IMG/VR virus record: IMGVR_UViG_3300015024_000001
Span: 32,001-96,000 of that record
DNA from: a virus
DNA: 64,000 nucleotides
Reading direction: 5' to 3' (one strand)
The position numbers were made by a program, and so were the translations under genes. Below, one piece after another: positions 11,822 to 62,849 of the stretch; position 1 is the first letter of the stretch, and each line of letters opens with the position of its first letter. The notes beneath the pieces were generated by a model that saw only the letters and a program-made list of their open reading frames with translations, did no database searches and was not told the DNA's origin.

Positions 11822-12271
11822 TTATTTAATAGGCTTTCTATATTGATCTAACTCTAATAATTGTTCAACTGTTAATTCAGCATGACGACCTTGTGCAATT
11901 AAAAGTTCTATTTCAGGTGAAATAATCTTCTTTTCTATGGTCTTAGGTTTAGGAGTCCAAGTTTTACATTTCTCTATAAGTGATTTATATGTAATCTGTA
12001 GACTACCAAACTCTAGTATCTCATCTTCTAATAGTAAAAGTAAATCCTGTAATTTATTATTTTCTCTTTCTTGGTTACGTTCATCAGGAGGCGTTTTAAT
12101 TTGTCCTTGTGTTTCAAGCATGTTCTCAAGTGTTACATGATCAAAATTATGCCATAACCATTCAGCAGAGTGAGGATTTACTTCTACTAGTTGAGCTAAG
12201 AAGTCAGCATCTAGGTCGCCTGTGCCGAAGCTAGAGTATCTGCTAAACGTTTGCTGTCCATCATCTTTCCC
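11822..12271 (-). CDS. tail assembly chaperone gpT portion (made as gpGT via -1 frameshift)
   Basis: The -1 frame is open from slippery site GGGAAAG (12265-12271) into ORF 11822..12121. Confidence 0.85.
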   Translation of the reverse strand, partial: GKDDGQQTFSRYSSFGTGDLDADFLAQLVEVNPHSAEWLWHNFDHVTLENMLETQGQIKTPPDERNQERENNKLQDLLLLLEDEILEFGSLQITYKSLIEKCKTWTPKPKTIEKKIISPEIELLIAQGRHAELTVEQLLELDQYRKPIK

Positions 12272-18305: not shown

Positions 18306-18695
18306 TTATAATACCATAAAATCTTCTTTTGTTTTTATTTCTATAGGTAGTTTAAGATTATCTATAATTGACATACAAACACCTATATATCTATAATCTA
18401 TAATATCGTTTTTATTTTCTTTAGCAAATATTATAATGACATTCTTAGAGCGTGGAAAATAATGACCATAGAAGAGAATTTGTCCAACAGCGTGTTTGAT
18501 ATTTGACCAGTGTTTAGCTTCATACAAAATATCATCTGTTAATATATCTATATAGCCCACAGGTGTATATACTTCGCGTTGATAACCAATACCTTTCTCT
18601 TCTAAGGTTTGACATATACTGTCCACAAATAGTCGTTCATGTGGATTTTTAGGTTTTTGTAATAACAGACGTGGAGGTTTGGGTAGGTCTATCAT
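18306..18695 (-). CDS. PD-(D/E)XK nuclease-like protein
   Basis: REV.TPVGYIDILT....YEAK...KHAVGQIL.Y motif. Confidence 0.7.
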   Translation of the reverse strand: MIDLPKPPRLLLQKPKNPHERLFVDSICQTLEEKGIGYQREVYTPVGYIDILTDDILYEAKHWSNIKHAVGQILFYGHYFPRSKNVIIIFAKENKNDIIDYRYIGVCMSIIDNLKLPIEIKTKEDFMVL

Positions 18696-37233: not shown

Positions 37234-37383
37234 TAACAAAAGGTAAAAACCAATAACTAGAACTTATCATATAACTCTTTATCTATAAGTATTCTGTATG
37301 CAGCATGGTGACCATAGAAGAGAAGGTAATGCTATAGTGAATATAGTTGAAAAACAAAACATCTTCGTAAAAAAGAAAATACT

Positions 37384-39825: not shown

Positions 39826-40590
39826 TCATTTGCCAAACCTCAATAACTCTCTGATTTTTGCTATAAATCTAAAACGTTCAGATTTTGTACGCTTGGTAAG
39901 AAGATTATACATTGTATCTAATTTTGTCCCAAGTGTATTATATGTATTTTCTGACCATACTTTATCAAACTGTTCAAGAGAAGCATATTGAATTACAACA
40001 GCACCATAGGGTTGTTTAGTATCTTCATCTTTTAGCACACGTATGTAATGACCAAACATACCTGTATCTAGTATAAAATTCTTATGTTTACGGCTTATGA
40101 TAGCATTATGTAAATGTACATGTATAAATTCTTTATCAGCCCCAAGACTTTTATAGAGATTGTAATCACTTTCTGTAAGTACTGATGGTACTAGAATTTC
40201 ACGTAGTTCTTTAATAATAGGTTTAATACCTACTCGTGTAGCTTCTGACATAGCACTAAGACGTTTCCAATGATATACCGTATTTGATACACCATTATGT
40301 AAAAAAAAGAAAACAACACGATCAGCATTGGTTATTTCACGCATTTCTACAGCGAGGTCATCCATAGCATCAATAATAGATATGTCAATACGATCAAGAG
40401 CAGTAAGAGCTATGTTAAGACTCTTAGTACTTGATTCAATAAGTTCTTTAACTTTAACAACACACAGTAAAGCTAATAATACTGTATTTAAAGATGCTGT
40501 TGGTATTGTTATATGAAGACCAAATGCTTCAATAGTAGGTAAGTAATCAGGTTTGATTTCTATAATGGGTTTGTTGATATCTGTTTGCAT
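39826..40590 (-). CDS. TM + GAF-like domain protein, possible T4 gpT-type holin
   Basis: One N-terminal TM helix, then ADRV.FF.LHNG...LSA.SE...GI.P GAF-like pattern. Confidence 0.45.
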   Translation of the reverse strand: MQTDINKPIIEIKPDYLPTIEAFGLHITIPTASLNTVLLALLCVVKVKELIESSTKSLNIALTALDRIDISIIDAMDDLAVEMREITNADRVVFFFLHNGVSNTVYHWKRLSAMSEATRVGIKPIIKELREILVPSVLTESDYNLYKSLGADKEFIHVHLHNAIISRKHKNFILDTGMFGHYIRVLKDEDTKQPYGAVVIQYASLEQFDKVWSENTYNTLGTKLDTMYNLLTKRTKSERFRFIAKIRELLRFGK

Positions 40591-40598
40591 ATTTTTGT

Positions 40599-41321
40599 TT
40601 AAGTTGTTCCTTCGAGTAGTGTAGGTTGTGCAGCTGCAAGTATGTTTTGTAGATGAGCAAGACGATCAGATATAGCCTTGGTGTCCACAGTTTTCTTGGG
40701 TGGCAAAGCTCTGTTTTTATACTGTTGCAAATCTTTAACCATATCTTTCTCCACAAGTGCTGTACGTGACTTAACAACTTGCTGTGACAACGTGTGTAGG
40801 TCTTTGCCTATAGCTAGTAAGTCTTTGAGTTCGCGGATGTCAATAGTTTCGTCATCATCTAAGGCGCGGTCTGTATCATATGCTTCTATGACACTATCGT
40901 ATTTGGTTAGTGCCATCTTGTAGATCTTGTTGAGTTTGTTGGTGGCTATCATAGCTTGTGTGTCAGCTATAGCACCTTCGTGGAGATATATGTTGAGTGC
41001 AGTGTTCTCAGCATTTTCTTGTAGACGTGCTTTGTATGTTGCTCGTTGGAGCGACCACTTCTCTTTGCCACTTCGCCTTTGTACTAATGGGTAGTAAGCT
41101 TTGTGGATATCTGCAAGTTCTTTGACAGTGTAGTCTGTTATTGCTGATGTACCATCATCGTGCAATATACGCTTACCTATTATATACTGCGCTCTTATTT
41201 GTTCATATGGTATCTTCTTACGAGGCTTGGGGGTGCTAGATGTAGGGTCATCTAGATAAACAAAGTCATCCTCGTTATCTTCCTCTACCTTTTCTTGAAA
41301 CTCTTCATGTAGGTCTGTCAT
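40599..41321 (-). CDS. terS: terminase small subunit (putative)
   Basis: HTH-like TVKELA........RRS.KEKW..QR followed by coiled coil; upstream of terL. Confidence 0.7.
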   Translation of the reverse strand: MTDLHEEFQEKVEEDNEDDFVYLDDPTSSTPKPRKKIPYEQIRAQYIIGKRILHDDGTSAITDYTVKELADIHKAYYPLVQRRSGKEKWSLQRATYKARLQENAENTALNIYLHEGAIADTQAMIATNKLNKIYKMALTKYDSVIEAYDTDRALDDDETIDIRELKDLLAIGKDLHTLSQQVVKSRTALVEKDMVKDLQQYKNRALPPKKTVDTKAISDRLAHLQNILAAAQPTLLEGTT

Positions 41322-41848
41322 CGTTTATCTTTCGCTAAATAGGATCTAAAATACTCTGTATATGTTAGTTCTTGATCTTTACAGATACGATCAAGTTTTG
41401 TTAGTTGGGATTCCGTAAGGTTAATCTTTACTCGATGTTCATATTTCTGTGAGGGTAGTTTCTTAGGTCTACCTATATGTGACATAATTTTGCACTTGTG
41501 TAAGTTAGATCTGTAATTTAATTATAACCCAAGATTGTGTGTAAAACAATAACAAATAAGAGGCGACAAGCTGTAGTATATGGTGGTTAGATTTACTTTA
41601 CAGTACAGCCTCCCAGCGTAACAAATACGAAATTTATACGAATAACCTTCCGTTAAGCTTTGTAAAGCTAATAGAACCGCGCTTAATAAAACGTTACAAT
41701 CGCTATGACCATTAACACACCTTGATCCTAGACTTCTATCTGTTTGATCTTCTATCTGTTTAGACCTGCATTATTTATCTATTAAGTAAAATAGAGTCTC
41801 TAGCGTCATATGTGCTAGAGCTTACCCATTAATTAGGACAGACCCAAA

Positions 41849-42715
41849 ATGACTAACTTGCAAGCTATTTCTGATGTATTAACAAAGATTTCGATTTCTA
41901 TCGAAATCTTTGTTAATACAAAGGCATATCATCTATTAGCGGATATGCCTGCCGATCTTTCTCTCAAGCAGTTCATTGTTGCTAAAGACAATGGATGTCG
42001 TTTAGCGGGTACACAAAGCCTATTTCGCTCTTGTGAAGTCATTGCTGACTTCACATTGCCTGCCAAGTTTGCCAAGCCTGCCAAGCCTGCCAAGCCAGAA
42101 GCTTTCACTGGCAAGGCTAAAAATGACTATTACGAATTGTTGGAGGTTTGGAGCGACTGGGATTTGACACCAGAAGCAACAATGAACGCTGAGATCGATC
42201 TCAGCGCGACTCGAATATTGCGAGACGACCTCATCCGCAAGGGTCGTAATTTGCAGCGATGCATCGCGTTCGTTCGGTCTTTCGATGCCTCTATGTTTGA
42301 AACTAATGAAGAGTTAGATCTTCATGAGTTATCAGAAAGTACACGGCAGAAAATCCTCAGTGTGTATCGCTCAGCATTTACCGCAAACCCTAACCTTTTG
42401 TTGCAGGGAAGCGCTGTTGATCTTCTTGCAAAAGATCAACTTTGTAATCTTGACAGCGTGGAGGGCATTGATCGGATCATTACAATCAAAAATGCGTACC
42501 CTAGCGCAGCATACGGTTTTATAAACCGCGAACTTTTGGGGCTGGCGTTACATTCCGTGAGGGAAGAGTGTAACGGTCTTACGTTGCTGAGGATTGCCTC
42601 AAGGCTTGACACACATCTAGGAGGAAGCAAAAATGCGACCTCTATTCTCGCTAATCTTAGGATGCTAGTATCAGGTTTAGCACCTAGTAAAGGTAAGAAG
42701 GCTGCCGCGCAATAG
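41849..42715 (+). CDS. hypothetical early protein with PAK repeats
   Basis: First plus-strand ORF; PAKFAKPAKPAKP; visibly less AT-rich than the late genes. Confidence 0.7.
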   Translation: MTNLQAISDVLTKISISIEIFVNTKAYHLLADMPADLSLKQFIVAKDNGCRLAGTQSLFRSCEVIADFTLPAKFAKPAKPAKPEAFTGKAKNDYYELLEVWSDWDLTPEATMNAEIDLSATRILRDDLIRKGRNLQRCIAFVRSFDASMFETNEELDLHELSESTRQKILSVYRSAFTANPNLLLQGSAVDLLAKDQLCNLDSVEGIDRIITIKNAYPSAAYGFINRELLGLALHSVREECNGLTLLRIASRLDTHLGGSKNATSILANLRMLVSGLAPSKGKKAAAQ

Positions 42716-42721
42716 CTAATA

Positions 42722-42776
42722 CACATAGAAAGAAAGTAACTTTCTTTCTATGTTTTCTTTCTATGTTTTCTTTCTA
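42722..42776. repeat. inverted repeat CATAGAAAGAAAG/CTTTCTTTCTATG plus 13-bp tandem repeat TTTCTTTCTATGT (about 2.8 copies)
   Basis: Read directly from sequence. Confidence 0.8.
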
Positions 42777-42799
42777 ACTAACCTATCCTGCAAAAGCCA

Positions 42800-43096
42800 A
42801 TGTATAAAGCTAAAATCACAATCGCTGTATCTTTTTCACTTTTCGCACAGTCTAAAAACTATCTAGATGATACTGTACCGTATTACAAGTATGAGTCTAA
42901 TGGCTTAACGACAGTACATGTATTTGGTCAAACTATGCAAGAGATTTTAACTCATTCTGTATTCACATTCACTGGTTTTTCAAACATTCTAGAAGTGTTT
43001 ATTACTTTTGAGGGCGAATATGATGAAGATACACAACCTAAACCTAAACACACTATGCAAGGTATAGAAGACAGTTCTAACTCTTGGGACTTATAA
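42800..43096 (+). CDS. hypothetical protein
   Basis: ORF followed by a terminator; C-terminal PKPKHTMQGI duplicated near 43985. Confidence 0.6.
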   Translation: MYKAKITIAVSFSLFAQSKNYLDDTVPYYKYESNGLTTVHVFGQTMQEILTHSVFTFTGFSNILEVFITFEGEYDEDTQPKPKHTMQGIEDSSNSWDL

Positions 43097-43118
43097 CTAA
43101 CCCGAGATCATCACACAT

Positions 43119-43151
43119 AACAGCCTAGTTTAATCGCTAGGCTGTTTTTTT
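43119..43151 (+). terminator. rho-independent terminator
   Basis: AACAGCCTAG..CTAGGCTGTT plus T-run. Confidence 0.85.
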
Positions 43152-43168
43152 ATGTCTTGGCATAGATA

Positions 43169-43222
43169 CACTGTTTCGCTCTTACAAGCTCATCAGGCAG
43201 CACAGTATATGCTGCGACAGTG
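43169..43222 (-). ncRNA. hammerhead ribozyme, type III
   Basis: Minus strand reads CACUG-UC, stem I GCAGCA/UGCUGC, CUGAUGA, stem II GCUU-GUAA-GAGC, GAAA, CAGUG; GUC cleavage triplet. Confidence 0.9.
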
Positions 43223-43266
43223 GAACATAGAAAAGAAGTTGTTAGTTTCTCTTCTATGTTAGTGGG

Positions 43267-43623
43267 TTACAACATATTGTAACCACACTCTTTGATATGT
43301 TCCACTGTCGTACTTTGCAGAAGTGCAAAGTTATATAGGTCGTCAAAACTACCAACAGTAGTAGCTTCATACTCTTCTTCTGTGAGAAGAGTAACTTCTG
43401 TAATCCCCCAATCCAATGCGGCATTGTTAGTACCATTAGGACTTAACAAACAATGCTGCTGAAAGATAAAGGCTGTGACCCACTCTTTCGTAGGATACTG
43501 AGAGGAACAACAGACAAGCCATGTATTGTCATACTGCTGATGCCACCATTTTATAATGGCATAGGCTCGTGACGGTAGGGCTTGTTTAGCCAAATAAACT
43601 ACCTGTGAATCTTTCTTAGCCAT
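43267..43623 (-). CDS. hypothetical protein
   Basis: AGGACAAA RBS and TATAAT upstream; hammerhead downstream. Confidence 0.65.
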   Translation of the reverse strand: MAKKDSQVVYLAKQALPSRAYAIIKWWHQQYDNTWLVCCSSQYPTKEWVTAFIFQQHCLLSPNGTNNAALDWGITEVTLLTEEEYEATTVGSFDDLYNFALLQSTTVEHIKECGYNML

Positions 43624-44089
43624 TCGATTTTTGTCCTGTGAAATTATCTAATTATAACGGTTTACAGTCATTAATAGCCAATAACTTAATAAATCTTAAC
43701 ATAAGCATATCTTACAAAATTCATTAAATTATCGGCTAATTTTCGTGTAAGTTAATAATCTTGCACTACCTCGACATTAGGCAGTAGATTCTGAATAACT
43801 TGAAGAGAACCACAACTAAAAAACTGAATCTGATTGGTATCATCAGTAGCAAGATCGATAAGCAGCTGATTCAAATTTAAAACTACTCTGTTGTCTGTTA
43901 ACACAAAAACAACAGAGTCAGATTCAGTGTAATTCTGAAAAAGTGATTAGAATCGAGATAGAACAAGATCCAGCCGATCTGTTACCTAAGCCTAGACACA
44001 CTATGCAAGGTATAGATAGATGTGATGATGATGATCTAGACTATTTTGATGATGATGTTGATAACCAGATCGATGTATAAACCTTATAT

Positions 44090-44119
44090 ACACGTTAGCT
44101 TATCCCTAGCGTGTTTTTT
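44090..44119 (+). terminator. rho-independent terminator
   Basis: ACACGTTAG..CTAGCGTGT plus T-run. Confidence 0.75.
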
Positions 44120-44520
44120 ATGTGCCTAACGTCACAAGGCTGCCTATAGCTAACAACACACGTCATACAGCGATCATGGTTAACACACTATGATCGTATA
44201 TGCCATATACGATCATCAGACTGTATTTATTAAGCGCTTAGAACGTAATATATAAGGCTGCCATAGAAAAGAAGTAAAGTGCTATTTTTTATTACATTGA
44301 TATTTTGAATTAACCGATCTAAGCATAAGATGTAAGAAAAGCTAGCAAGGTAGTTTTAGTTTACTAGGTAGTTTTTTATTTTTTATGTAGCGGGATTTTT
44401 TTTAATTTTTTGCTTGCCGCTATGATTACTATTTTTCTGTAACTGTTTTATAGCATTATATTATCAAAAAGCTAGAATATGTTAAGATATACATAGATAG
44501 AATTAACATAAAATTAGAAC

Positions 44521-46287
44521 ATGAAAATAATAGCACCAAGTAATTCACTCTACTGCTCAGACTTTATGGTAGATGTTCCACTAGGTATTGTAGATAAAAA
44601 GCTCTGCGGCTGCGGCTTAACTTCGGTAGCTTTAGAGAATAATAAACCTACAATCATCTGTGTTCCTAACACTGAAGTTATATTGAACAAAGTAGGGCAA
44701 TATCCCAATAACCGTAGAAAGGAAAGTGTGCTAGGTGTATATGCAGGTGTTGATGTGCAAGCAAAACTACCTACTTATCTTGCCACTGCTGCTGTACCTA
44801 AAATCATGGTAACGTATGACAGCTTCTGGCGGTTGATGCCTTATGTAGATGATAGTTGGGTATTCATAGTGGATGAGTTCTCGGATCTTCTAGATGTTTA
44901 CAACTACCGTGATAAAGCTGTACGTCGTCTGCTCAAGGACATTAAGAACTACACTAACGTCTCTTATATATCTGCAACACCAATCAAACCTGAATACTAC
45001 CCTGATGAATTGATCGGGTTACCTTACACTGAAATCGAATGGCAGGATATTGTGCGTTGTAGTGTGGTACGTAAGCCTACAGCACACCCTTATAAAGCGG
45101 CAGCAGTAATTATTGCACGGTACATTATGGCAGGCTCTGAAGGTGTAGAGATGCCTAATGGTTACTATAGTAAGTCAGCGTTATTTTTTGTAAATTCCGT
45201 CACAGCTATTAAGCAGTTGATAACCAAGACAAAGCTACATCCATCACAGGTACGTATTATCTGCGCTGATACTGATGATAACCGTAGGAAGTTAGGGCGC
45301 AAGTATAAGATACAAACTGCGTTAGATCCTGAGCCATTGATTACTTTCACTACATCTAAAGCTTTCAAAGGTAGTGATTATTATTCAGAGACAGGTGTAG
45401 TTTATATTGTTTCTAACACACATAACATTAATACACTAATAAGTATTGATACTGACGCAGTTCAAATCAGTGGCAGAATCCGTACACTAAGCAATCCTTT
45501 TAGACACGTTATTTTTCATATCTACAATACAGACCCTTCTCTTCTATGTGAGGAGGATTTCAACGCCCTTGTAGCTAAAAAGATAAGTACTACTGATGCG
45601 TTGTTATCTGGCTTTTCACGTCTGGTAACTTATGAAGAGAAAGCAGGTTATGTTAATCTCTATAAGACACAACATGAGGAAGCTAAAGATGACCACTACG
45701 TTATGGTTGATGACCATGATACACCTTTCTTTAACCGCTACATGATTAAGAATGACCGTAGGCGATGGGAGACAAGTCATCTGGTGTATGTGGAAGGTAG
45801 TGCTATTAGACAAGCTTACCTACAAGCTGGTTTTGATGCACCTTCTGGTGAACATATACCATCTACTAAGTTTACAGAGGAATTTTTAGATCGTTTAACT
45901 ACTATGGACTTCAAAGAGAAATGTCTGGAGTTCATTGACAAGAAGGAAGAGGTAGAGGGTTATTTTACTGACTACGCTCCCGATATCCGTGATGCTTATA
46001 ATCTACTAGGTGTTAAAAAAATGAAAGCTTTAGGTCTTAATCCTACTAGAATTAAACATGCTCTAGCAGATGCAAGACCAGAAATCCAACAAGATCTACA
46101 TGAGACTGTACATGCAGAATTTCAACCTAATAACTTCTATACACTCAAGGATATTAAAGATAAACTGCAAACTATATACGACCAACTCCAAATGCACAAA
46201 AAGGCTAAGGCTACAGATCTATCGCAATGGTTTGTCACAGCACAAAAGAAAGCAGATGGCACGAATGGTTTATATATAACTACCTAA
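44521..46287 (+). CDS. SF2 (DExD/H-like) helicase-related protein
   Basis: Variant Walker A KKLCGCGLT, IVDEFS, SATP, FFVNSV, GSDYY, QISGRIR. Confidence 0.8.
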   Translation: MKIIAPSNSLYCSDFMVDVPLGIVDKKLCGCGLTSVALENNKPTIICVPNTEVILNKVGQYPNNRRKESVLGVYAGVDVQAKLPTYLATAAVPKIMVTYDSFWRLMPYVDDSWVFIVDEFSDLLDVYNYRDKAVRRLLKDIKNYTNVSYISATPIKPEYYPDELIGLPYTEIEWQDIVRCSVVRKPTAHPYKAAAVIIARYIMAGSEGVEMPNGYYSKSALFFVNSVTAIKQLITKTKLHPSQVRIICADTDDNRRKLGRKYKIQTALDPEPLITFTTSKAFKGSDYYSETGVVYIVSNTHNINTLISIDTDAVQISGRIRTLSNPFRHVIFHIYNTDPSLLCEEDFNALVAKKISTTDALLSGFSRLVTYEEKAGYVNLYKTQHEEAKDDHYVMVDDHDTPFFNRYMIKNDRRRWETSHLVYVEGSAIRQAYLQAGFDAPSGEHIPSTKFTEEFLDRLTTMDFKEKCLEFIDKKEEVEGYFTDYAPDIRDAYNLLGVKKMKALGLNPTRIKHALADARPEIQQDLHETVHAEFQPNNFYTLKDIKDKLQTIYDQLQMHKKAKATDLSQWFVTAQKKADGTNGLYITT

Positions 46288-46310
46288 CACTTTTCTTCTA
46301 CGGTCATGCA

Positions 46311-46334
46311 AGCACATCTTCGAGTGTGTTTTTT
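46311..46334 (+). terminator. rho-independent terminator
   Basis: GCACA..TTCG..TGTGT plus T-run. Confidence 0.6.
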
Positions 46335-46725
46335 ATAAAAACCCCGATCATGTAACATAAACGAAATTATCACGGGATCTCGTTACATGTCGCAACATAT
46401 CGCAATCCAACTTTACAAAAATCACGATTAACATTAAGAATTATTAAGATAACCTTGTAACCATTGCTATATATAGCTTATAAGCTTATTATAGTTAGGT
46501 ACAGATAGATCTGTTATAGGTTAGTTATGTTATTAAGCAAATATGTTCTTGCAGGACAATACTGTTCTTTCTATCATTACAAAAATACAAAGCAGTATGC
46601 AAATACTGTAATGGAAGATTACCACAATTTCTTACATCCTGCTACATAGTACACACAGGTGACAAGCTACCCCTTGTTAGTTGGTACACACTAAAGTACC
46701 AGTACACATTATCTGGTAAACAACA

Positions 46726-47151
46726 ATGTCTGATCTACTCACAATCTTCAACAAGCTTTCTGATGACTCTTTGTTCACATACTACCAAGCTTTATATTGG
46801 TACGCTTCTGAGAACCATGAAGGGCAGTTCACAAAGCTTTATTCCATCCTTTCAACACTCAAGTACAAACCTGCACTTACAGAAAAAGCAGAAGATGTAG
46901 ATTTCGATGTGTTAGGATTTCCTGTATCACATGACAACATGGTTTTGTTGGCTACAGCGCTACGTCTGTACTACATAGTACAGCAAGAGAGTTGTAAGTT
47001 CGCTAAATTACATAGGTTTACAGATAGAAACCTATACCTTGCAGAATATCATGACTTTGATGATAACCATGTAGTATGTATCACATACTACATGGTGTAC
47101 AACATTACTGGAGATTCTATAATCAACGAAACTTTCCCTCCTGACCTATAG
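46726..47151 (+). CDS. hypothetical protein
   Basis: ORF; ALYWYASENHEGQF..LYSILS pattern seen in phage proteins. Confidence 0.65.
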   Translation: MSDLLTIFNKLSDDSLFTYYQALYWYASENHEGQFTKLYSILSTLKYKPALTEKAEDVDFDVLGFPVSHDNMVLLATALRLYYIVQQESCKFAKLHRFTDRNLYLAEYHDFDDNHVVCITYYMVYNITGDSIINETFPPDL

Positions 47152-47277
47152 GTTGCCCTGTGTACCAGCACAGGACGAGGTTCGATTCCTTGTAGCTACA
47201 TAATCTACACATAGAAGAGAACTAATAAACTTCTCTTCTACTATTACACAGGACAAAACAAGACAAGGGTAGGACAA

Positions 47278-48399
47278 ATGTTAAAGTTACAAGAAAAGAT
47301 AAAACTGCTACCGTTCTCGAAGGTGCAGTGTTGGTTCGCCCAGTCGAAGTTCGTATTATGGGAAACCTATGCAGAAGTCATGTATCAGGCTTGGCTTGCA
47401 GGTCGTAATTTGGTCGTCTACGGTAAAGGTGGTTTCGGTAAGTCAGAAATGACCTACCACTTCCTTGCTCTACTAGCAGACACTATTCCTGACTTTAGCA
47501 GTGACCTATTAGATTGTGGTGGAGCTGATTCCACGAAGATCTGGGCAGGTATTAAAGGTGCTGAATTGCCTAACTTCATCTACAATGTTGAATCTAGCTG
47601 GTTGGCAAGCCGCTATGTAGTGTTTGAGGAACTCTTTGACGCGCAACTCTCTGCGTTAGTCGAGATGAAACAAACCTTGACTTCAGGGGAATTTCGTACA
47701 CCACTACAAAGATATGTCTCAAAATATGAGTGGCTTATCTGCCTGACCAACAAAAGCAAAGCAGAAGTTCTTGATAGTGTATCGGAAGAGTCACGCAACA
47801 CAGTAGATGCTTTACTCCAGCGTTTTCCACTAGCTTACCAGCTAGAATGGACTTCAGAGCAGTTAAGAGATTCCGCTACTTGGTATGAACTATTCGCCAA
47901 AACAAAACCACATCTTACAGCAAATGTGCGTGACCTATACGCAGGTGCAATGGCACAAGCACACAAGCAAAAGAAAGCCAACCATGACTATATGAGTCCT
48001 CGGTCAGCATTACATCTACTTAGCACAACTGAAGCTTGGGCTGCAAGCACCAACAAACCTCTCACACTCAGCCATTTTATTTCTACGTCTTGGGCTTATC
48101 CTGAGCCTGTAGCAACTTACTTTAAGGATCAAGAGTTTATGTGGCTTGACCCTGAACCAGAACCTGAGCCAGTAGCAGAGGTTTTGGATATTGACTCCAT
48201 GATCGAATGTCTTGCAGAGTTAGGTACTGATGAACTACCGTTGTACAAGATGCAGCAACTTGACTTGCATGTCAAGAAGTTGGTCTATGCTTACGAAGAC
48301 AGCGACCCTGCTGCTGTAGCTTGTTTGCAATCAATGTTTGGCAAACGTCTATGTAAATGGCAAATTGTAACAGATACTCAATTTGTGGAGGCTGCATAA
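47278..48399 (+). CDS. MoxR/RavA-like AAA+ ATPase
   Basis: GKGGFGKS Walker A, VVFEELFD Walker B, CLTN sensor, ALLQRF arginine finger, SPR. Confidence 0.85.
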   Translation: MLKLQEKIKLLPFSKVQCWFAQSKFVLWETYAEVMYQAWLAGRNLVVYGKGGFGKSEMTYHFLALLADTIPDFSSDLLDCGGADSTKIWAGIKGAELPNFIYNVESSWLASRYVVFEELFDAQLSALVEMKQTLTSGEFRTPLQRYVSKYEWLICLTNKSKAEVLDSVSEESRNTVDALLQRFPLAYQLEWTSEQLRDSATWYELFAKTKPHLTANVRDLYAGAMAQAHKQKKANHDYMSPRSALHLLSTTEAWAASTNKPLTLSHFISTSWAYPEPVATYFKDQEFMWLDPEPEPEPVAEVLDIDSMIECLAELGTDELPLYKMQQLDLHVKKLVYAYEDSDPAAVACLQSMFGKRLCKWQIVTDTQFVEAA

Positions 48400-48402
48400 A
48401 TC

Positions 48403-49659
48403 ATGACACATAGAACATACGCATCACGTCCTATCACAATACCTACTACCGAAATTGCAACCAAATGCTCCCGCTTTGTTATGGACTACACAGTGGTTGA
48501 AGATTTCTACAATGTAGTACTCGGCAAAGGTAAATTCCATACAGGAGAAGACCTTAGAAAGAAAGTAGCTGAATCTTTAGCAGCAAGTGGTAGTTGGCGT
48601 TATGAGTCTTATCCTGCCGAGACCATCAAACAGCAACTTTTATATGACACTGCTGTTCATAATTTCGTGATTGATTGTGTAAAGCGTAACTTCATTACGT
48701 CTGCCACAATCGAAGCTGACATCTGTAAAATGAATGAAGCCTTTAGTGCAGGTTTCAAAGATTTTGATTCTCATACTAATACGGCGTGTGAAATAAGTGT
48801 TGACAATCGCTACTCTGTGCCAGATTTTAGTACAGTAGTTGGCAATGGTGTTTCCAGCGCTAGCAACTTTCTTTCTACGGTCTGCAAGAAAGATTGCATT
48901 GATGATATCCGTTTGTTCTCACCTGCTATACAGAAAGAACTACAAACTATACAAGACATAGCCTGTAACGTCAAAGCTGCATTAGCTTATAACAACGGTA
49001 CAGCAAAACGGGACACTAACACGAAAACAGATTTTGCAGTACAGAGAAGTAATAAATCACTGCAAGAAGCTAAATTCTTATCTCGTAGCGAGTATGTTTA
49101 TGACACCAATACACGGCTTGCTAGACTAGTAGCCAATCAAGCACAGGTTCTTACACCGCAGAAAAAAGTACGCAAGAAATTCGCTCGTTTCTTGTTGTTA
49201 GACTGTTCGGGTAGTATGACTTACTATGCAAGATACAATGTGGCAGCAGCTATACTGTTGGATTCTATAGAGTCTGTAGTCACAAACGGTGATATCCTGC
49301 ACATGGCTTTCTTTGGTGAAGACTTCTTCTACAAAGGTGTTGTAACTAAAGATAACGCCCATGACCTCTTGCTACAAGTGTGTAACAGAAAGAATTACAC
49401 TAAAGGGACAGATTATGGTGCTGTAGTTCAGACAGCTTGGCAGATCTTACAGGGATCACCCGACCGCCAACAGCTTGAAATCATACTACTATCTGATGGC
49501 AAGATTGATGCTTTTAAACCATTGTGTATACAGCAGGAGGGTGTTGTACACTTCGTAGATTTGTCTAACGGTGACCAAATAGACTCTTCTATCGCTCGCA
49601 TGGTTCGAGAACATAATGGCACAATTACTACTTTAAACTCTCGGCGTTTAGTACCATAA
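48403..49659 (+). CDS. VWA (MIDAS) domain protein, ViaA/CoxE-like partner
   Basis: LLLDCSGSM, GTD, ILLSDG; adjacent to the MoxR ATPase. Confidence 0.85.
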   Translation: MTHRTYASRPITIPTTEIATKCSRFVMDYTVVEDFYNVVLGKGKFHTGEDLRKKVAESLAASGSWRYESYPAETIKQQLLYDTAVHNFVIDCVKRNFITSATIEADICKMNEAFSAGFKDFDSHTNTACEISVDNRYSVPDFSTVVGNGVSSASNFLSTVCKKDCIDDIRLFSPAIQKELQTIQDIACNVKAALAYNNGTAKRDTNTKTDFAVQRSNKSLQEAKFLSRSEYVYDTNTRLARLVANQAQVLTPQKKVRKKFARFLLLDCSGSMTYYARYNVAAAILLDSIESVVTNGDILHMAFFGEDFFYKGVVTKDNAHDLLLQVCNRKNYTKGTDYGAVVQTAWQILQGSPDRQQLEIILLSDGKIDAFKPLCIQQEGVVHFVDLSNGDQIDSSIARMVREHNGTITTLNSRRLVP

Positions 49660-49717
49660 CCACCTGATGAGTCTACCTTGCAGTGGTAGCCGAAACCTTG
49701 CTTATGCAGGGTCGTGG
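49660..49717 (+). ncRNA. hammerhead ribozyme, type I
   Basis: CCAC, CUGAUGA, stem II G.CUACC/GGUAG.C, GAAA, stem III CCUUGC-UUAU-GCAGGG, UC, GUGG; GUC cleavage after 49713. Confidence 0.88.
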
Positions 49718-50173
49718 GCAACTGTTACTCCCCACATAACAACAAATCTGGTTTTATTGTAGGATGGAATGATACTGCCTTTTGTATCAACACTTGCCGT
49801 AGAAAAGAACAACCTTATAAACTAGGAGTAAAAGCGGCTCTAATGTTTTATAGTAGCACAGGTAAGAGACTATTCTCTTTAAGTATGACCTAATAGCTGT
49901 ATATCGCGTTCTGAGACTTGCTAGCATATTTTGGCTTACATACTAGCTTTTTATATATAACGAGTCTTAAAGCGCGTTTAAAGGTATGTTTCTTTTTGTT
50001 TACTTGTTAAAAGTAAAACGCTATTACTTGCTTTGTAGCAAAGCTACAAGCTAAGTCGTATCTCTATCAGAAGAAAAAAATAATCTCTTGACTCCACAGA
50101 GAAGCTAAATAAAAGGAGCCGTCTCTACACCTAGTAGAGCGTGGTGGTACAATAACCCACCGTAGGACATAAT

Positions 50174-50380
50174 ATGCTACAAGCAATTCAAGTTCATTAC
50201 AGACCACACACAAAAACTGCCAGAGCATTTTGTTTTTCTGGTAGTATTATACTACCAGTAGAGGATTTTGAGACAGATGCGCTCAATGTAGCTGAAGCAC
50301 TTCAAGCTAAGATGCAGTGGGAGGAGTATTCTTTAATAGGTGGTCGTCTACCTAATGGTGATTTCGTATTTGTACAATAA
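50174..50380 (+). CDS. hypothetical protein
   Basis: AGGAC RBS; MQAI...Y.P..T...GG.LPNGD.VF pattern. Confidence 0.65.
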   Translation: MLQAIQVHYRPHTKTARAFCFSGSIILPVEDFETDALNVAEALQAKMQWEEYSLIGGRLPNGDFVFVQ

Positions 50381-50511
50381 CACAACTTTTCAAATCTTCC
50401 AACTCATAAAAGCAGGTAACAATGGAAGACAGGCTTACAAAGAAGGTAAGCTTCTACATGACAATTCTTTTGATCTTGTGGAGAAGGAGCTTGAAACACA
50501 GTGGTAAAATT

Positions 50512-50943
50512 ATGAGTAGCTCTGGTAGACAAACAGTTTGGTCGCGGCGTGTTCGTAGACGTGATAATCATACTTGCAATATCTGTTTAAGTACAGAAAA
50601 TCTAACTGCACATCATCTTAACTCTGCTGACATTAGACACAGATGGTCGTTAGACAACGGTATCACACTCTGCTTTACATGTCACCAGCGATTTCATAAA
50701 TCACACTAGTGTATAACTAAAAATCAACGCAAACCCTGCACAGCAAATGATTATGTGCGGTACAAGGAGAAAACAATCGCTAAGTACTGCCGTAATCAAG
50801 GCAGAAAAGCATTTCACGCTGGATTAACCAGATGTGATAATCCCTATACAACTACAGAACATTATCTGTGGTGGGATCGAGCTTTTAGATATGAGCAACA
50901 GCAAACTACACCTTCTTTCTATGGTCTTGAGTATGGTAGTTGA
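50512..50943 (+). pseudogene. HNH endonuclease with Rmf-like C-terminus, split by in-frame TAG at 50707-50709
   Basis: VRRRDNHTCNIC..AHH..DNGITLC..CH..FH; frame continues past TAG into KPCTANDY and GRKAFHAG..CDNPY..WW. Confidence 0.55.
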
Positions 50944-51110
50944 AATACTTTCACCCCTCTACTATGGGATAATCCACAAATACAAGTTGTCATCTAAGCA
51001 GCTTGTGTTGTATCAAGACATTGTGCAAGATCAACCTTTATCTTCTAAGGTTATCCACAAGCTACTTGCTAATGGTATTCTAACAAATCAAATCAAATCA
51101 AGGAACTATA

Positions 51111-51482
51111 ATGCTATCTACTAATTTTTTCCAAGTTGTCATCGCCCCTAACCGTAACTACGCAACTATTGAAAACATCCCTGATGCTTATATATATCTG
51201 CCACATCCATTTTCTGAGTATGAAGTTAAGTTGTTGAAAGACTTTTTTACTAACCACTACCCTTGTTTTACATTACATATTACAGGAGAGTATTTTAAAA
51301 CTGCTAATGCAGAATACCCAGAACCAGCACGACAGTTTGTAGATAGTTGCAAATATAGACTAGAGATGAAATCTATAACCTGCAATAATCCAAAAGCTCT
51401 TGAACAACAAATCATTTCTTGTATGGAGATGGAAATCACTGTAGAAGATGAAATTGCAAACATCTGCATACCACGTTTTTGA
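51111..51482 (+). CDS. hypothetical protein
   Basis: ORF with AAGGAA RBS. Confidence 0.55.
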   Translation: MLSTNFFQVVIAPNRNYATIENIPDAYIYLPHPFSEYEVKLLKDFFTNHYPCFTLHITGEYFKTANAEYPEPARQFVDSCKYRLEMKSITCNNPKALEQQIISCMEMEITVEDEIANICIPRF

Positions 51483-51699
51483 TCTTTCCCTACGGTGCAT
51501 TACTACAACTGTGCATCGTGAGGAGTGATCAAAGTATATAATCACCCACAACAAATAAATGAACACACAAGAGCTACAGTCTATTATTGGCGAACACAAT
51601 AATATCCAACGTTGGAAAGAGAAGTATTTAACTGAGTGTCTTTCTCGCAGTCTAGAGTTTAAACGCTACTATTAAGCTGTAAAACACCAACAGCATATA

Positions 51700-51927
51700 A
51701 TGGAGTTACTTTCTGATTCTCTGTCAATACCACCACTGACCATAGAAGAGAAAGTGGCTAACGCTTTCTTCTACGTTGACTCTAATGGTAGATACGAAAT
51801 TACTTCTTACGATCTTGATGGGAAATACTTCTTTTTTGTAGATTCTGCAAACAACGATGTAGAGTACAACCTCAACTTCCACGAAATCCCTGCTGATGCT
51901 TATTTCTTAGGAGTTACAAAACTATGA
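51700..51927 (+). CDS. hypothetical protein
   Basis: ORF in a run of small early genes. Confidence 0.5.
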   Translation: MELLSDSLSIPPLTIEEKVANAFFYVDSNGRYEITSYDLDGKYFFFVDSANNDVEYNLNFHEIPADAYFLGVTKL

Positions 51928-52106
51928 TTGACGATAGATTCTCACTTGTTCCACATCCTGATTTTAAAAATTTATTCTTTCTACAGTTCACTGTTGTTTT
52001 ACCACAAGAAAAATATTTTACTACACAGACTGGTAAGATTCAGGATGAGTGTAAACGGCAGTATCCTGCTGAACTGTCAACAATCACACCGTATAAGTAT
52101 GTCTAA
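51924..52106 (+). CDS. hypothetical protein
   Basis: ATGA overlap with the previous gene. Confidence 0.5.
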   Translation: MIDDRFSLVPHPDFKNLFFLQFTVVLPQEKYFTTQTGKIQDECKRQYPAELSTITPYKYV

Positions 52107-52217
52107 CTTTCTTCTGTCCTTTACTCAAGAACAACGTACTCTTACTATATTTCTACTTGAACTTTCCATTATCTACATTGTTATTTACTACGTCAAATCT
52201 TTGGACAATATAAAACT

Positions 52218-52541
52218 ATGAAACTCATTAACGGTCATCGCTACATTATAACAGAAACACAGAATACCTTTACTTTTGTTTTGTGCAACAGGAAGGGTAC
52301 TCGACTACTTTGGCACTCTTGTAGTAAGAATTGCAAAGATGCGGGAGAAGTTAGCTTTTGGAGGAAGGTTGTGATTCTGTATGAGCAGTTTGAGATTAAA
52401 CGTAGCACACTTCTGAACCGTAATCTTAACTCCCTGTTTGCAGAAATAGATACTGTGGAGATCCAAGTGGCAGCTATATACACACAAGCTGGCAATACTG
52501 ATTTTTTAACGAAAATTGATCGAGTTGTATTAGCATTGTAA
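52218..52541 (+). CDS. hypothetical protein
   Basis: ORF followed by a terminator. Confidence 0.55.
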   Translation: MKLINGHRYIITETQNTFTFVLCNRKGTRLLWHSCSKNCKDAGEVSFWRKVVILYEQFEIKRSTLLNRNLNSLFAEIDTVEIQVAAIYTQAGNTDFLTKIDRVVLAL

Positions 52542-52547
52542 TTTTCT

Positions 52548-52588
52548 AAAAGAAGCGCTCTATATCCTTTATACAGAGCGCTTCTTTT
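52548..52588 (+). terminator. bidirectional-type terminator
   Basis: AAAAGAAGCGCTCT..AGAGCGCTTCTTTT. Confidence 0.8.
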
Positions 52589-52707
52589 ATGGTTTAAAAC
52601 CCGATCAAAAACTGACATATATAATAGATATAAAATTATACTAGCAAGCCTTGAAACCCATATAAATCGTTAGCTAAAATCCATATATTACGAAATGTAA
52701 CATTAGA

Positions 52708-52736
52708 TTGCCATTTCCTAGCTATCAGGATATATT
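52708..52736 (+). promoter_or_regulatory. sigma70-type promoter
   Basis: TTGCCA-N17-TATATT just after a terminator. Confidence 0.6.
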
Positions 52737-52970
52737 AAGTACATCGAAACAAAGCAAAGCGAAACAAACACAAAGCAAAGCCTAATCGAGACTAAGTTGT
52801 AGTTATCAAGACACTGGTAGCATTATTACAATAACCTAGCTGAGTAACATTTACTTAGCGCTGTAAACCAACTGTAGGATTAAGTTCCTTACAACCGTGC
52901 CAAAGTCGGTAACTTACTATATCCAAAGTAAGGATGGTGGTAGTCCAGCAAAATAAATCTGTATGATACC

Positions 52971-53333
52971 ATGCGCTGTTTCCGCTTAACACGACACGAA
53001 GCTACACCTGAACAAATCAAAGCACTCTGTACTATCTATCATGATCTCACACCAGAGAACATCGTAACTAACAATATAATAATAACAACTAATATTAAAG
53101 AAGCTGTTACCATGTTTGATGACCTTGTTGGTGATACAGAGTTGGTAGAGGTTGTATTACCAACTAACTTGTTAGAAGCAGTTCTCAAGTTCTCACAGTG
53201 GGCTAAGTTGCCATCATCTTCTCTTCTACGTTCTGTGATGAATCGCACAACAAATACTTCGGGTGAAGTAGAGTTTGTGTTTAGTCACTATGAACGGATT
53301 TTGAAAGTAGAGATTGTCACTGAAAAACTATAG
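52971..53333 (+). CDS. hypothetical protein, Csx16/Csx15-like Rossmannoid candidate
   Basis: LTRHEATPEQ and GD....VVLPTNLLEA motifs. Confidence 0.45.
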   Translation: MRCFRLTRHEATPEQIKALCTIYHDLTPENIVTNNIIITTNIKEAVTMFDDLVGDTELVEVVLPTNLLEAVLKFSQWAKLPSSSLLRSVMNRTTNTSGEVEFVFSHYERILKVEIVTEKL

Positions 53334-61290: not shown

Positions 61291-61479
61291 ATGACTAAAC
61301 AACAACTTTCTTTCTATGTTGCTTGTGTTGCACTAGCTTTTGGTGTGTTCTTCTTTGTAGTTGGTGGATGGTCAATTGGACAAATTGTACCACAGTTTAT
61401 TGAAAATGCTAATATTGCACAAATCAAAGGTTTGTTGTGCCTCATTGTAGCTGCTGTTCTATATACAAATACAAAATAA
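61291..61479 (+). CDS. small two-TM membrane protein
   Basis: MTKQQLSFYVACVALAF...; GGAG RBS. Confidence 0.55.
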   Translation: MTKQQLSFYVACVALAFGVFFFVVGGWSIGQIVPQFIENANIAQIKGLLCLIVAAVLYTNTK

Positions 61480-62849
61480 TGTATCAAGCTATCATAACTC
61501 CTGTCCAAGCCATCTTGCCACATCCTAATGCAGACAAGTTGGAAATTGCTGTAGTTTGTAACAATCATATAATCGTAGGTATTGATAACTACAAAACAGA
61601 TGACCTTGTTATCTTTTTTGAGGTAGATGGCTGTCTCAGTAAAGAATACTGTGAAGCTAACAATCTATATGAACGTTTTGAAGAAGTTAATGGTGTCAAA
61701 ACTCGTATTAGTACAGGTTACTTAGATAGTAACGGTAGGATTCGTGCATTGAATCTGCGGTCTTATAAATCTAACGGTTTAGTAATGCCTCTGCGATCAC
61801 TCGATTTTCTAGACTTTGATCATTCTATACTGAGAGAAGGTTATGCTTTCACATCTCTAGGTAAGGTAGAAATCTGTAAGAAGTATGAAACATCAGCTAC
61901 AAAATTGGCACGTGCAACAGCCAAGAAGGATAAACTAAAGCTAAAGTACAGCACTGTGTTTCACGAACACGTAGACACACAGAACTTTCGCAGGAACGTC
62001 AATCAAATACCCATTGGCGCAACTGTTACTATTACTGAAAAAATCCACGGCACATCAGGTAGAGTATCGTTAGCCTATACAAAACAAGAGGTATATAATC
62101 CATTCCTTTCTATGGTCTTCAATCGCTTAAACATGCCAACCCCTTGGCAACCAATCAACAAAGCGTGGCAGTTCCTACGTCAGACTATAGAAGAAAAAGG
62201 TAAGACAACCACAAAAGGTTATACGTACCAACATGGTACTCGGCGAGTTCTACTCAAGAGAGATAGCCTTGATAAAGGTTACTATGGTAGTGATAGTTTC
62301 CGTTGGCAAATAGCTGACCGTCTATTACCACTACTCCATAAAGGAGAAGAAGTCTACTATGAAATTGTAGGTTGGAGTTCTCCTGAACGAACCATCATGC
62401 CTATTCACGCCACATCTATTACTAGTGACAAGAAGTTTATCAAGCAGTATGGTTCGGAAATTACTTACAACTACGGTGTACCTAATGGTACAGCAAAGGC
62501 ATTTGTGTATCGCATAGCAGTAACTAATGAAGATGGTCACCAATGGGAGCTTCCTTGGGCTTCAGTTAAAGCTCGTTGTGCAGAATTTAATGTAGACCAT
62601 GTACCTGAACATTTCTACCGTTGCTATGATAGATATGATGGTAACTCTGAAACTCTTATAACAGATGTAGAGTATCTCTCCCTAATCTCTACTTTCACGA
62701 ATCAATTCCCTGAAGGAGTTGTAGTACGTGTTGACTATAAAGGTACAACATGGTTCTTAAAAGAGAAGAACTGGTACTTTCTAGCAATGGAGGGTTTCTC
62801 GAAAGATAAGCCTGATTATGTAGATACAGAGGAGATTGAAACAGATTAG
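61479..62849 (+). CDS. RNA ligase (DRB0094/Rnl2-like) with N-terminal OB-type domain
   Basis: I.PHPNADKLE.A N-terminus; motif I TEKIHGTS; EIVG; EGVVVR; LKEK. Confidence 0.9.
   Translation: MYQAIITPVQAILPHPNADKLEIAVVCNNHIIVGIDNYKTDDLVIFFEVDGCLSKEYCEANNLYERFEEVNGVKTRISTGYLDSNGRIRALNLRSYKSNGLVMPLRSLDFLDFDHSILREGYAFTSLGKVEICKKYETSATKLARATAKKDKLKLKYSTVFHEHVDTQNFRRNVNQIPIGATVTITEKIHGTSGRVSLAYTKQEVYNPFLSMVFNRLNMPTPWQPINKAWQFLRQTIEEKGKTTTKGYTYQHGTRRVLLKRDSLDKGYYGSDSFRWQIADRLLPLLHKGEEVYYEIVGWSSPERTIMPIHATSITSDKKFIKQYGSEITYNYGVPNGTAKAFVYRIAVTNEDGHQWELPWASVKARCAEFNVDHVPEHFYRCYDRYDGNSETLITDVEYLSLISTFTNQFPEGVVVRVDYKGTTWFLKEKNWYFLAMEGFSKDKPDYVDTEEIETD

Follow-up and report, generated by a model that had tools for sequence, protein, structure and literature searches.

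A conserved type I hammerhead motif directly downstream of a phage VWA gene and a downstream copy of its stem I strand

The DNA examined here, referred to as the window, is a stretch of 64,000 nucleotides that corresponds to bases 32001–96000 of the 131,991-base virus record IMGVR_UViG_3300015024_000001 (CheckV completeness 95%). On its plus strand, positions 49660–49717 hold a complete type I hammerhead that starts on the base right after the TAA stop codon of a gene for a VWA-domain protein. This is a genuine, evolutionarily conserved hammerhead motif located directly 3′ of a phage VWA gene, and it is not due to chance. Judging from its sequence and from those of its relatives, the element at 49660–49717 probably encodes a functional, self-cutting type I hammerhead acting on the mRNA of the VWA operon. 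The explanation that we favor as a whole, and in which we place good confidence, makes it a member of a large phage-borne clade of hammerheads with three marks: stem I is a fixed CCAC/GTGG helix of 4 bp, stem II is irregular behind its first G-C pair, and loop II forms a pseudoknot with a 3′ tail that starts 3–4 nt past stem I.

Results

Architecture of the hammerhead

The motif opens with the 5′ strand of stem I, CCAC (49660–49663), which pairs with GTGG (49714–49717), the first bases of the predicted 3′ product. Next come the catalytic core strand CTGATGA (core positions 3–9, 49664–49670), which reads CTGATGA or CTGACGA in relatives, and stem-loop II (49671–49691), the arms of which (GTCTACC and GGTAGCC, seven positions each) form six pairs and one T/C mismatch, at the second position, around the loop TTGCAGT (49678–49684). 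The core GAAA, read from the sequence as G12, A13, A14, and A15.1 (49692–49695), leads into stem-loop III (49695–49712), with seven pairs including A15.1–T16.1 and the loop TTAT. A GTC triplet follows stem III and ends on C17 (49713), so that cleavage is predicted between 49713 and 49714. An exact-core descriptor recovers both the core of the hammerhead class, namely CTGATGA, GAAA, and the U-H dinucleotide T49712-C49713, and the connectivity of type I, with an open stem I (4 bp) and closed stems II and III. The first-pass annotation of this DNA had placed a type I hammerhead against the stop codon and had noted its intact core and GUC site; sequence reading and descriptor agree with it, and its coordinates and its cut after 49713 are correct.

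With stem I of at least 4 bp, stems II and III of at least 4–5 bp, and an exact core, the type I descriptor has exactly one match on both strands of the 131,991-base record. Three hundred first-order Markov genomes of the same size gave three matches altogether, none with comparably good stems.

Conservation among syntenic relatives

A search of DNA collections with an alignment of VWA homologues reached one IMG/VR and six metagenome loci (individual loci are designated below by the letter L and a number). Searches with the single VWA protein and with an exact stem II pattern gave no match in viral contigs, and BLAST with a 4-kb piece spanning the site and with two hammerhead sequences gave none in a collection of named phages. 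All of the seven related contigs that reach the end of the VWA homologue have a type I hammerhead just after the stop codon, at a distance of 4–17 nt (0 in the window), although the VWA proteins are only about 50% identical (49–57% for L001–L005 and L007). A synteny comparison with related contigs indicates that the gene order upstream of the hammerhead is the same in the relatives; the gene content 3′ of it varies among them. The CCAC strand is kept in six relatives despite differing flanking bases, and stem I is CCAC/GTGG in L001–L005 as in the window. L007 and L006 have another stem I and a GTA cleavage triplet, the L006 hammerhead being cut by the end of its contig. Stem III varies in sequence and length in almost every relative locus and, with compensatory changes, its hairpin is always kept. 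In stem II, a C-G pair is exchanged for T-A in a compensatory manner in L002, and the T/C mismatch of the window is a G-C pair in L001 and L002.

A predicted pseudoknot of loop II with the 3′ tail

Bases GCAGT of loop II (49680–49684) can pair with the tail strand ACTGT (49721–49725) through four Watson–Crick pairs and one G.T, and this predicted 5-bp pseudoknot would supply the tertiary contact of loop II with the stem I side on which fast cleavage by hammerheads depends. The partners in L001–L005 are AACAGT with ACTGTT; a second type I hammerhead of L005 (at 9460) has GTAGTT with AACTAC, that is to say two compensatory pairs in register; and L028 has AGCAGC with GCTGTT. More distant members present GGT/ACC, GGC/GCC, GAC/GTC, GAGAC/GTCTC, CAAGAT/GTCTTG, and GGCAAG/CTTGCC. 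Across the clade (80 distinct sequences, see below), the pseudoknot helix is 84.5% paired and all three of its three pairs change on both sides, one position being C-G in 31 cases, T-A in 17, and G-C in 5. A permutation test of the pseudoknot gave 0 of 2000, with stem II mis-parsed in sequences that have a bulged A and in L001 and L002, and is to be weighed together with the covariation in the 80 sequences. Two downstream partners for loop II had been put forward in the first-pass annotation: the ACTG(T) option at 49721–49725 stands, with covariation in the relatives and in the clade, whereas the GCAA option at 49718–49721 lacks covariation support in the closest relatives, whose tails begin GAAA. 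Covariation thus supports a pseudoknot predicted between 49680–49684 and 49721–49725. Pseudoknots that replace the loop–loop contact have been described for all three hammerhead types, with a detailed account for type II and a statement that types I and III can form one in the accessible portion of the report; in a type II example, mutation showed that the pseudoknot is needed for fast cleavage (PMC3088659).

A clade of phage-borne hammerheads

When stem I, core, and cleavage triplet were combined into one search pattern, 71 further IMG/VR loci were detected, often with two to four copies per contig. Together with the window and L001–L005, they form a clade set of 103 matches, 80 of them distinct. 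For hammerhead structure and three-pair pseudoknot together, 91.1% of cells are paired in the distinct sequences versus 72.3% in column shuffles, a value that 0 of 500 shuffles reach and the significance of which is overstated by such shuffle-based figures because the counted sequences are related. When partners are slid by one to three columns, pairing falls to 28–48%. Furthermore, 12 of the 19 pairs change on both sides, which is the covariation expected of helices, and stem III covaries clade-wide.

A covariance model, R1, was built from 69 clade sequences with the window and L001–L007 left out, the seeds having been gathered with the window-derived pattern. It scores the window site at 46.8 bits (E 8.6e-10), as the only match in the 64 kb, and recovers L007 (28.8 bits) and L006 (22.3 bits), both of which lie outside the collecting pattern.

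A Shine–Dalgarno-like word with a start codon lies within 100 nt downstream of the hammerhead in 55 of the 75 distinct members with enough flank, versus 13 of 75 in the upstream control; clade hammerheads therefore usually sit in a polycistronic RNA, within the leader of the gene that follows. Clusters of three to five type I hammerheads per 1–3 kb occur at L026 (11187–12201), L076 (532–2592), L017, L029, L034, and L054, with one hammerhead before each short gene; every L026 hammerhead has a hairpin and an AAGGAGG word behind it.

The dispersal of the clade bears on the possibility that the hammerhead is a selfish or neutral passenger, spreading by recombination at gene boundaries without benefit to the operon. 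In favor of such a passenger are the near-identical cores and stems I of 71 IMG/VR loci, which lie in many unrelated gene contexts and often have several copies on one contig, the different gene content behind the VWA hammerhead among relatives, and a presence/absence polymorphism between related phages, the L005 hammerhead at 9460 having no counterpart in the window (~50895–50926). Against it, all eight genomes examined have retained the hammerhead behind the VWA gene, at about 50% protein divergence, and the compensatory changes that maintain both helices and pseudoknot point to purifying selection acting on the fold here. To our knowledge, moreover, no mobility mechanism exists for hammerheads in DNA phages. 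We consider a passenger improbable.

Scores of curated models

Rfam at gathering score reports no match in the whole window, and with E-value thresholds over 40000–53000 it reports only the type III site described below. RF00163 has no match on the whole virus record, and an Rfam search of the L001–L007 loci (E up to 0.1) reports no hammerhead. On 151 bases alone, Hammerhead_1 (RF00163) gives 12.6 bits with E 3.1 and RAGATH-1-hammerhead gives 16.0 bits, for cut-offs of 34 and 56.3, respectively. The Infernal check with Hammerhead_1 that the first-pass annotation had proposed therefore ends below the gathering cut-off, and Rfam by itself does not confirm the site at 49660–49717. The minimum-free-energy z-score of the hammerhead region, −0.48, is unremarkable. 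Low Rfam scores, a short stem I, a mismatch in stem II, and an ordinary fold z-score are the arguments for a motif that arose by chance or that has decayed and lost cleavage. Opposed to them are the rarity of the descriptor in simulated genomes, where no match has comparable stems, the syntenic conservation with covariation, and the E-value of the clade model, and we hold a chance or decayed motif to be very improbable.

A downstream copy of stem I and a predicted hairpin in the 3′ product

A copy of the stem I 5′ strand lies between +8 and +35 in 51 of the same 75 members; three equally sized control windows gave 3, 7, and 4 of 75. In a mixed set, the downstream copy is present in 25 of 44, versus 4 and 4 in controls. 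Type I hammerheads of the same loci with the stem I strands GCGG, GCGGC, and GCGAG carry CCGC, GCCGC, and CTCGC downstream, and L007 has a 6-bp hairpin starting at +1. The downstream copy thus changes together with stem I. In 20 of the 75 members, the arrangement is GTGG-GAAR-CCAC and the 3′ arm overlaps the pseudoknot bases, so that active fold and hairpin are mutually exclusive in these members.

In the window, the corresponding alternative hairpin of the 3′ product spans 49714–49735 on the plus strand, GTGGG (49714–49718) pairing with CCCAC (49731–49735) across a 12-nt loop that contains the pseudoknot tail. It is present in the centroid fold and is computed at −6.6 kcal/mol for the free 3′ product. 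Computed energies are −19.7 kcal/mol for the active fold without the pseudoknot, −22.7 for the alternative fold, and about −3.8 for the pseudoknot duplex, and the active and alternative states are therefore close in energy.

On the simplest reading, the 3′ product would refold once it is cut off, preventing religation and leaving a 5′-terminal hairpin. The main alternative is a braking role before cleavage: the hammerhead would be real and the stem I copy would make its cutting slow or conditional, with ribosome traffic at the stop codon, temperature, Mg2+, or a protein as the condition, and hence make the site a regulated switch in place of a constitutive processing site. Such a brake draws on the alternative fold being the centroid structure and 3 kcal/mol stabler than the active fold without the pseudoknot, on the mutual exclusion of hairpin and pseudoknot in the 20 members mentioned above, and on the start of the ribozyme right after the stop codon, a place at which a ribosome in termination would occlude both stem I and the core. 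However, the distance from stop codon to ribozyme varies from 0 to 17 nt across the window and its relatives, and coupling to termination is therefore not conserved; there is no evident ligand- or protein-binding element; and the pseudoknot hammerheads tested so far, in the accessible part of PMC3088659, are fast. We judge a brake to be unlikely.

Gene context of the site

The plus-strand gene row, which is conserved, consists of a 588-amino acid (aa) ORF, a 141-aa ORF, a 373-aa P-loop protein (47278–48399), and the 418-aa VWA protein (48403–49659), the TAA stop of which (49657–49659) lies directly 5′ of the ribozyme. The first-pass annotation had spoken of a MoxR-VWA operon. Its VWA half holds, since Pfam VWA_2 scores 28.1 bits for a cut-off of 27, and the VWA protein has 17 homologues in a large protein collection. 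The MoxR half is confirmed by no HMM: a Pfam search with E up to 5 found no AAA, AAA_5, or bpMoxR match for the 373-aa protein, and searches of Pfam, NCBIfam, and PDB sequences returned only weak P-loop matches or P-loop noise, the weak matches covering residues ~41–94. An ESM Atlas feature search places this protein, which is 71–77% identical in related contigs, with bpMoxR/AAA_5 viral clusters (score 0.94, the best sharing 197 features). "MoxR" is thus only a lead that rests on language-model resemblance, and the gene is possibly a MoxR-like AAA+ gene that serves here as context.

Comparison of the window's ORF list with the ORFs of relatives supports no ORF 3′ of the hammerhead in the window. 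An ORF at 49714–49893, which starts at the cut, has no homologue among the ORFs of relatives and was for this reason treated as non-coding. The window contains no tRNA, and a link of the hammerhead to tRNA was rejected on this ground. A promoter and terminator scan around the hammerhead showed no enrichment over shuffles. About 190 nt after the cut lies an inverted repeat followed by a T-rich stretch (49906–49975, plus strand), with 14-position arms (49906–49919 and 49962–49975) and a spacer of ~42 nt, a candidate end of the transcription unit. It aligns in all six loci compared (the window and L001–L005), and RNAalifold pairs its arms, with 2 of 23 pairs changed on both sides. Possible functions of this repeat are termination and the binding of a protein at the boundary of transcription units.

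A type III hammerhead and a recurrent motif

The record contains a second hammerhead, of type III, on the minus strand (43169–43222), with a cut predicted between 43216 and 43215. Rfam Hammerhead_3 (RF00008) aligns to it end to end with 44.1 bits for a cut-off of 48.5 (E 4.8e-07), and the type I and type III sites are the only descriptor matches in the whole record. The presence of two hammerhead topologies within 6.5 kb, as first reported for this DNA, is borne out, with the type III site 6.4 kb away and on the opposite strand. A circular or spliced RNA made by the two window hammerheads was discarded as a candidate, the pair lying on opposite strands.

The type III hammerhead lies just after the last ORF (43623–43267) of its strand's unit and is immediately preceded by a 14-bp hairpin (43260–43224, minus strand), so that its 5′ product would end in a hairpin; this hairpin-then-type-III arrangement recurs in L001, L002, and L005. 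The end of ORF 43623–43267 includes bases that could pair with the stem III 5′ strand of this hammerhead and with the bases preceding it. The resulting long alternative hairpin (43311–43216, minus strand), which surfaced as a spurious match to a microRNA family, could mask the type III ribozyme. Extra type III hammerheads occur in the operon of relatives (L001 1159–1250 and 2911–3010, L002 2247–2340, L005 3196–3290), each followed by a Shine–Dalgarno word and a start codon; one of them precedes a ~1-kb insertion, absent from the window, between the 141-aa and P-loop genes.

The 3′ arm of the 14-bp hairpin is a copy of a recurrent motif of ~20–25 nt, roughly A-CCAC-pyrimidine run-TTCTATG[GT]TC, found eight times in the window versus 0.35 expected: at 2852–2861, 11933–11942, 50917–50926, and 62108–62117 on the plus strand and at 18464–18473, 37310–37319, 43223–43232, and 51738–51747 on the minus strand. 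It occurs on both strands, within and between ORFs, and also in L001–L005. In relatives, it lies directly after type I hammerheads, forms the 3′ arm of a 14–15-bp hairpin directly before type III hammerheads, or stands just before terminator hairpins, and this last position makes a promoter unlikely. A general role of TTCTATG[GT]TC as a translation start was rejected, the frames from its ATG running for just 7–67 codons in the eight copies; the copy at 50921 may nevertheless be a start codon.

The second type I hammerhead of L005 (9460–9560) precedes a homologue, at 70% identity, of the window ORF 50834–51124. The window itself keeps the tail and the motif at ~50895–50926, without a ribozyme body, and just upstream lies an ORF for an HNH endonuclease (50422–50709). 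Further along the plus strand, a 470-aa ORF (61437–62849) combines an OB-fold domain (PF21189) with an RNA ligase domain (PF09414) and contains one copy of the motif. An RNA ligase is of note in a phage whose predicted ribozymes would yield 5′-OH and cyclic-phosphate ends.

Discussion

In the action that we propose, the P-loop/VWA operon transcript would carry the site as its 3′ untranslated end, and the RNA would fold with stem I and the 49680–49684/49721–49725 pseudoknot and cut itself after C49713. The upstream mRNA would then end 54 nt after the stop codon, with the compact body of stems II and III and a 2′,3′-cyclic phosphate at its 3′ end. The downstream RNA would begin with a 5′-hydroxyl and refold into the GTGGG/CCCAC hairpin, which would withdraw the 3′ strand of stem I and should make the cut irreversible. 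Overall, the fate of the RNA on one side of the cut would be uncoupled from that of the RNA on the other. For most members of the clade, the downstream piece would be the mRNA of the next gene. In this phage, it would be a piece of ~190–260 nt without a convincing reading frame, up to the conserved inverted repeat, and the ribozyme would here serve mainly to fix the 3′ terminus of the VWA operon mRNA, with a short non-coding fragment set free. Transcription, cleavage, refolding, and the effect on RNA stability are steps that we infer; phage transcript processing, already proposed for phage hammerheads in general, is the best reading of the site.

Several observations weigh against this proposal. 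Stem I counts only 4 bp and stem II carries a T/C mismatch at its second pair, which three relatives share; moreover, nearest-neighbor energies favor the competing hairpin unless the pseudoknot contributes, and because of the short stem I and these energies the site could be slow or mostly misfolded. Curated Rfam models stay below their cut-offs for 49660–49717 and for its relatives. The clade pattern was derived from the window, and stem I and the core, being invariant by construction, therefore bring no independent support; the relatedness of the counted sequences is a further restriction. A search of sequencing runs for 47300–51300 returned five DNA rows and no RNA run. Finally, the window site is atypical in having no gene start within 100 nt downstream, unlike most clade members, and for this reason a role in protecting the next mRNA has no obvious beneficiary here.

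The element most likely cuts the mRNA beside its gene, a habit already known from phage hammerheads, and it is not of a new kind. Perreault et al. (2011) described pseudoknotted hammerheads, several per prophage, that flank genes, and proposed that phage hammerheads cut long transcripts into shorter mRNAs (PMC3088659). In the portion of a 2019 review available to us, a processing role in phages was still called unproven (PMC6765202). The core and connectivity of Rfam RF00163 and RF00008 are shared by the two window sites, both of which score below the cut-offs. What our analysis adds, modestly, is a clade that curated models appear to miss and, in addition, a third strand that covaries and hints at a hairpin trapping the product. 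Phage annotations probably under-report this clade because at least 71 IMG/VR loci belong to it and its Rfam scores are far below the cut-offs. The downstream copy of stem I and the product hairpin, features of the hammerheads described here, were not found mentioned in the accessible text of PMC3088659, and we found no description of them in natural phage hammerheads, although one may have been published.

Other self-cleaving RNAs offer comparisons, as far as the accessible parts of the reports go. HDV-like theta ribozymes, found next to tRNAs in gut phages, are likewise small self-cleaving ribozymes of DNA phages that are linked to the formation of RNA 3′ and 5′ ends, but they belong to another ribozyme class and act on a tRNA substrate, which the window does not contain (PMC10879173). 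The synthetic insulator RiboJ consists of a hammerhead from a satellite RNA with an added 23-nt hairpin (Clifton et al., 2018); it raises transcript levels twofold on average, with the terminal hairpin suggested as a possible cause (PMC6206723). The likeness lies in a hammerhead that removes the upstream RNA, a hairpin at the new 5′ end, and a ribosome-binding site next to it. RiboJ differs in being engineered, with a separate add-on hairpin that does not re-use a stem I strand, whereas the hairpin here is built from the 3′ strand of stem I and competes with the active fold, and in the window no ribosome-binding site follows.

These comparisons lead to a broader proposal, which we advance tentatively and would not call probable, namely that the clade carries a built-in product trap. 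The copy of stem I located 8–35 nt after the cut would compete with stem I before cleavage, and in a quarter of the members also with the pseudoknot; after cleavage, the terminal hairpin would make the cut irreversible and cap the downstream mRNA. The type III sites would be the mirror image, with a 14–15-bp hairpin just before the cut, and both products would end in a stable structure.

The role of the hammerheads of DNA phages has been open since 2011, as far as the accessible text of PMC3088659 goes, and the window site is a clean test case, with its fixed syntenic position after a conserved gene pair and with relatives that amount to natural compensatory mutants. The family-wide downstream copy leads to a specific prediction on product refolding and RNA stability. 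If true, the product trap would give the engineered RiboJ insulator an equivalent in nature and would point to a general rule for DNA phages, in which hammerheads would determine the half-life of each mRNA segment separately.

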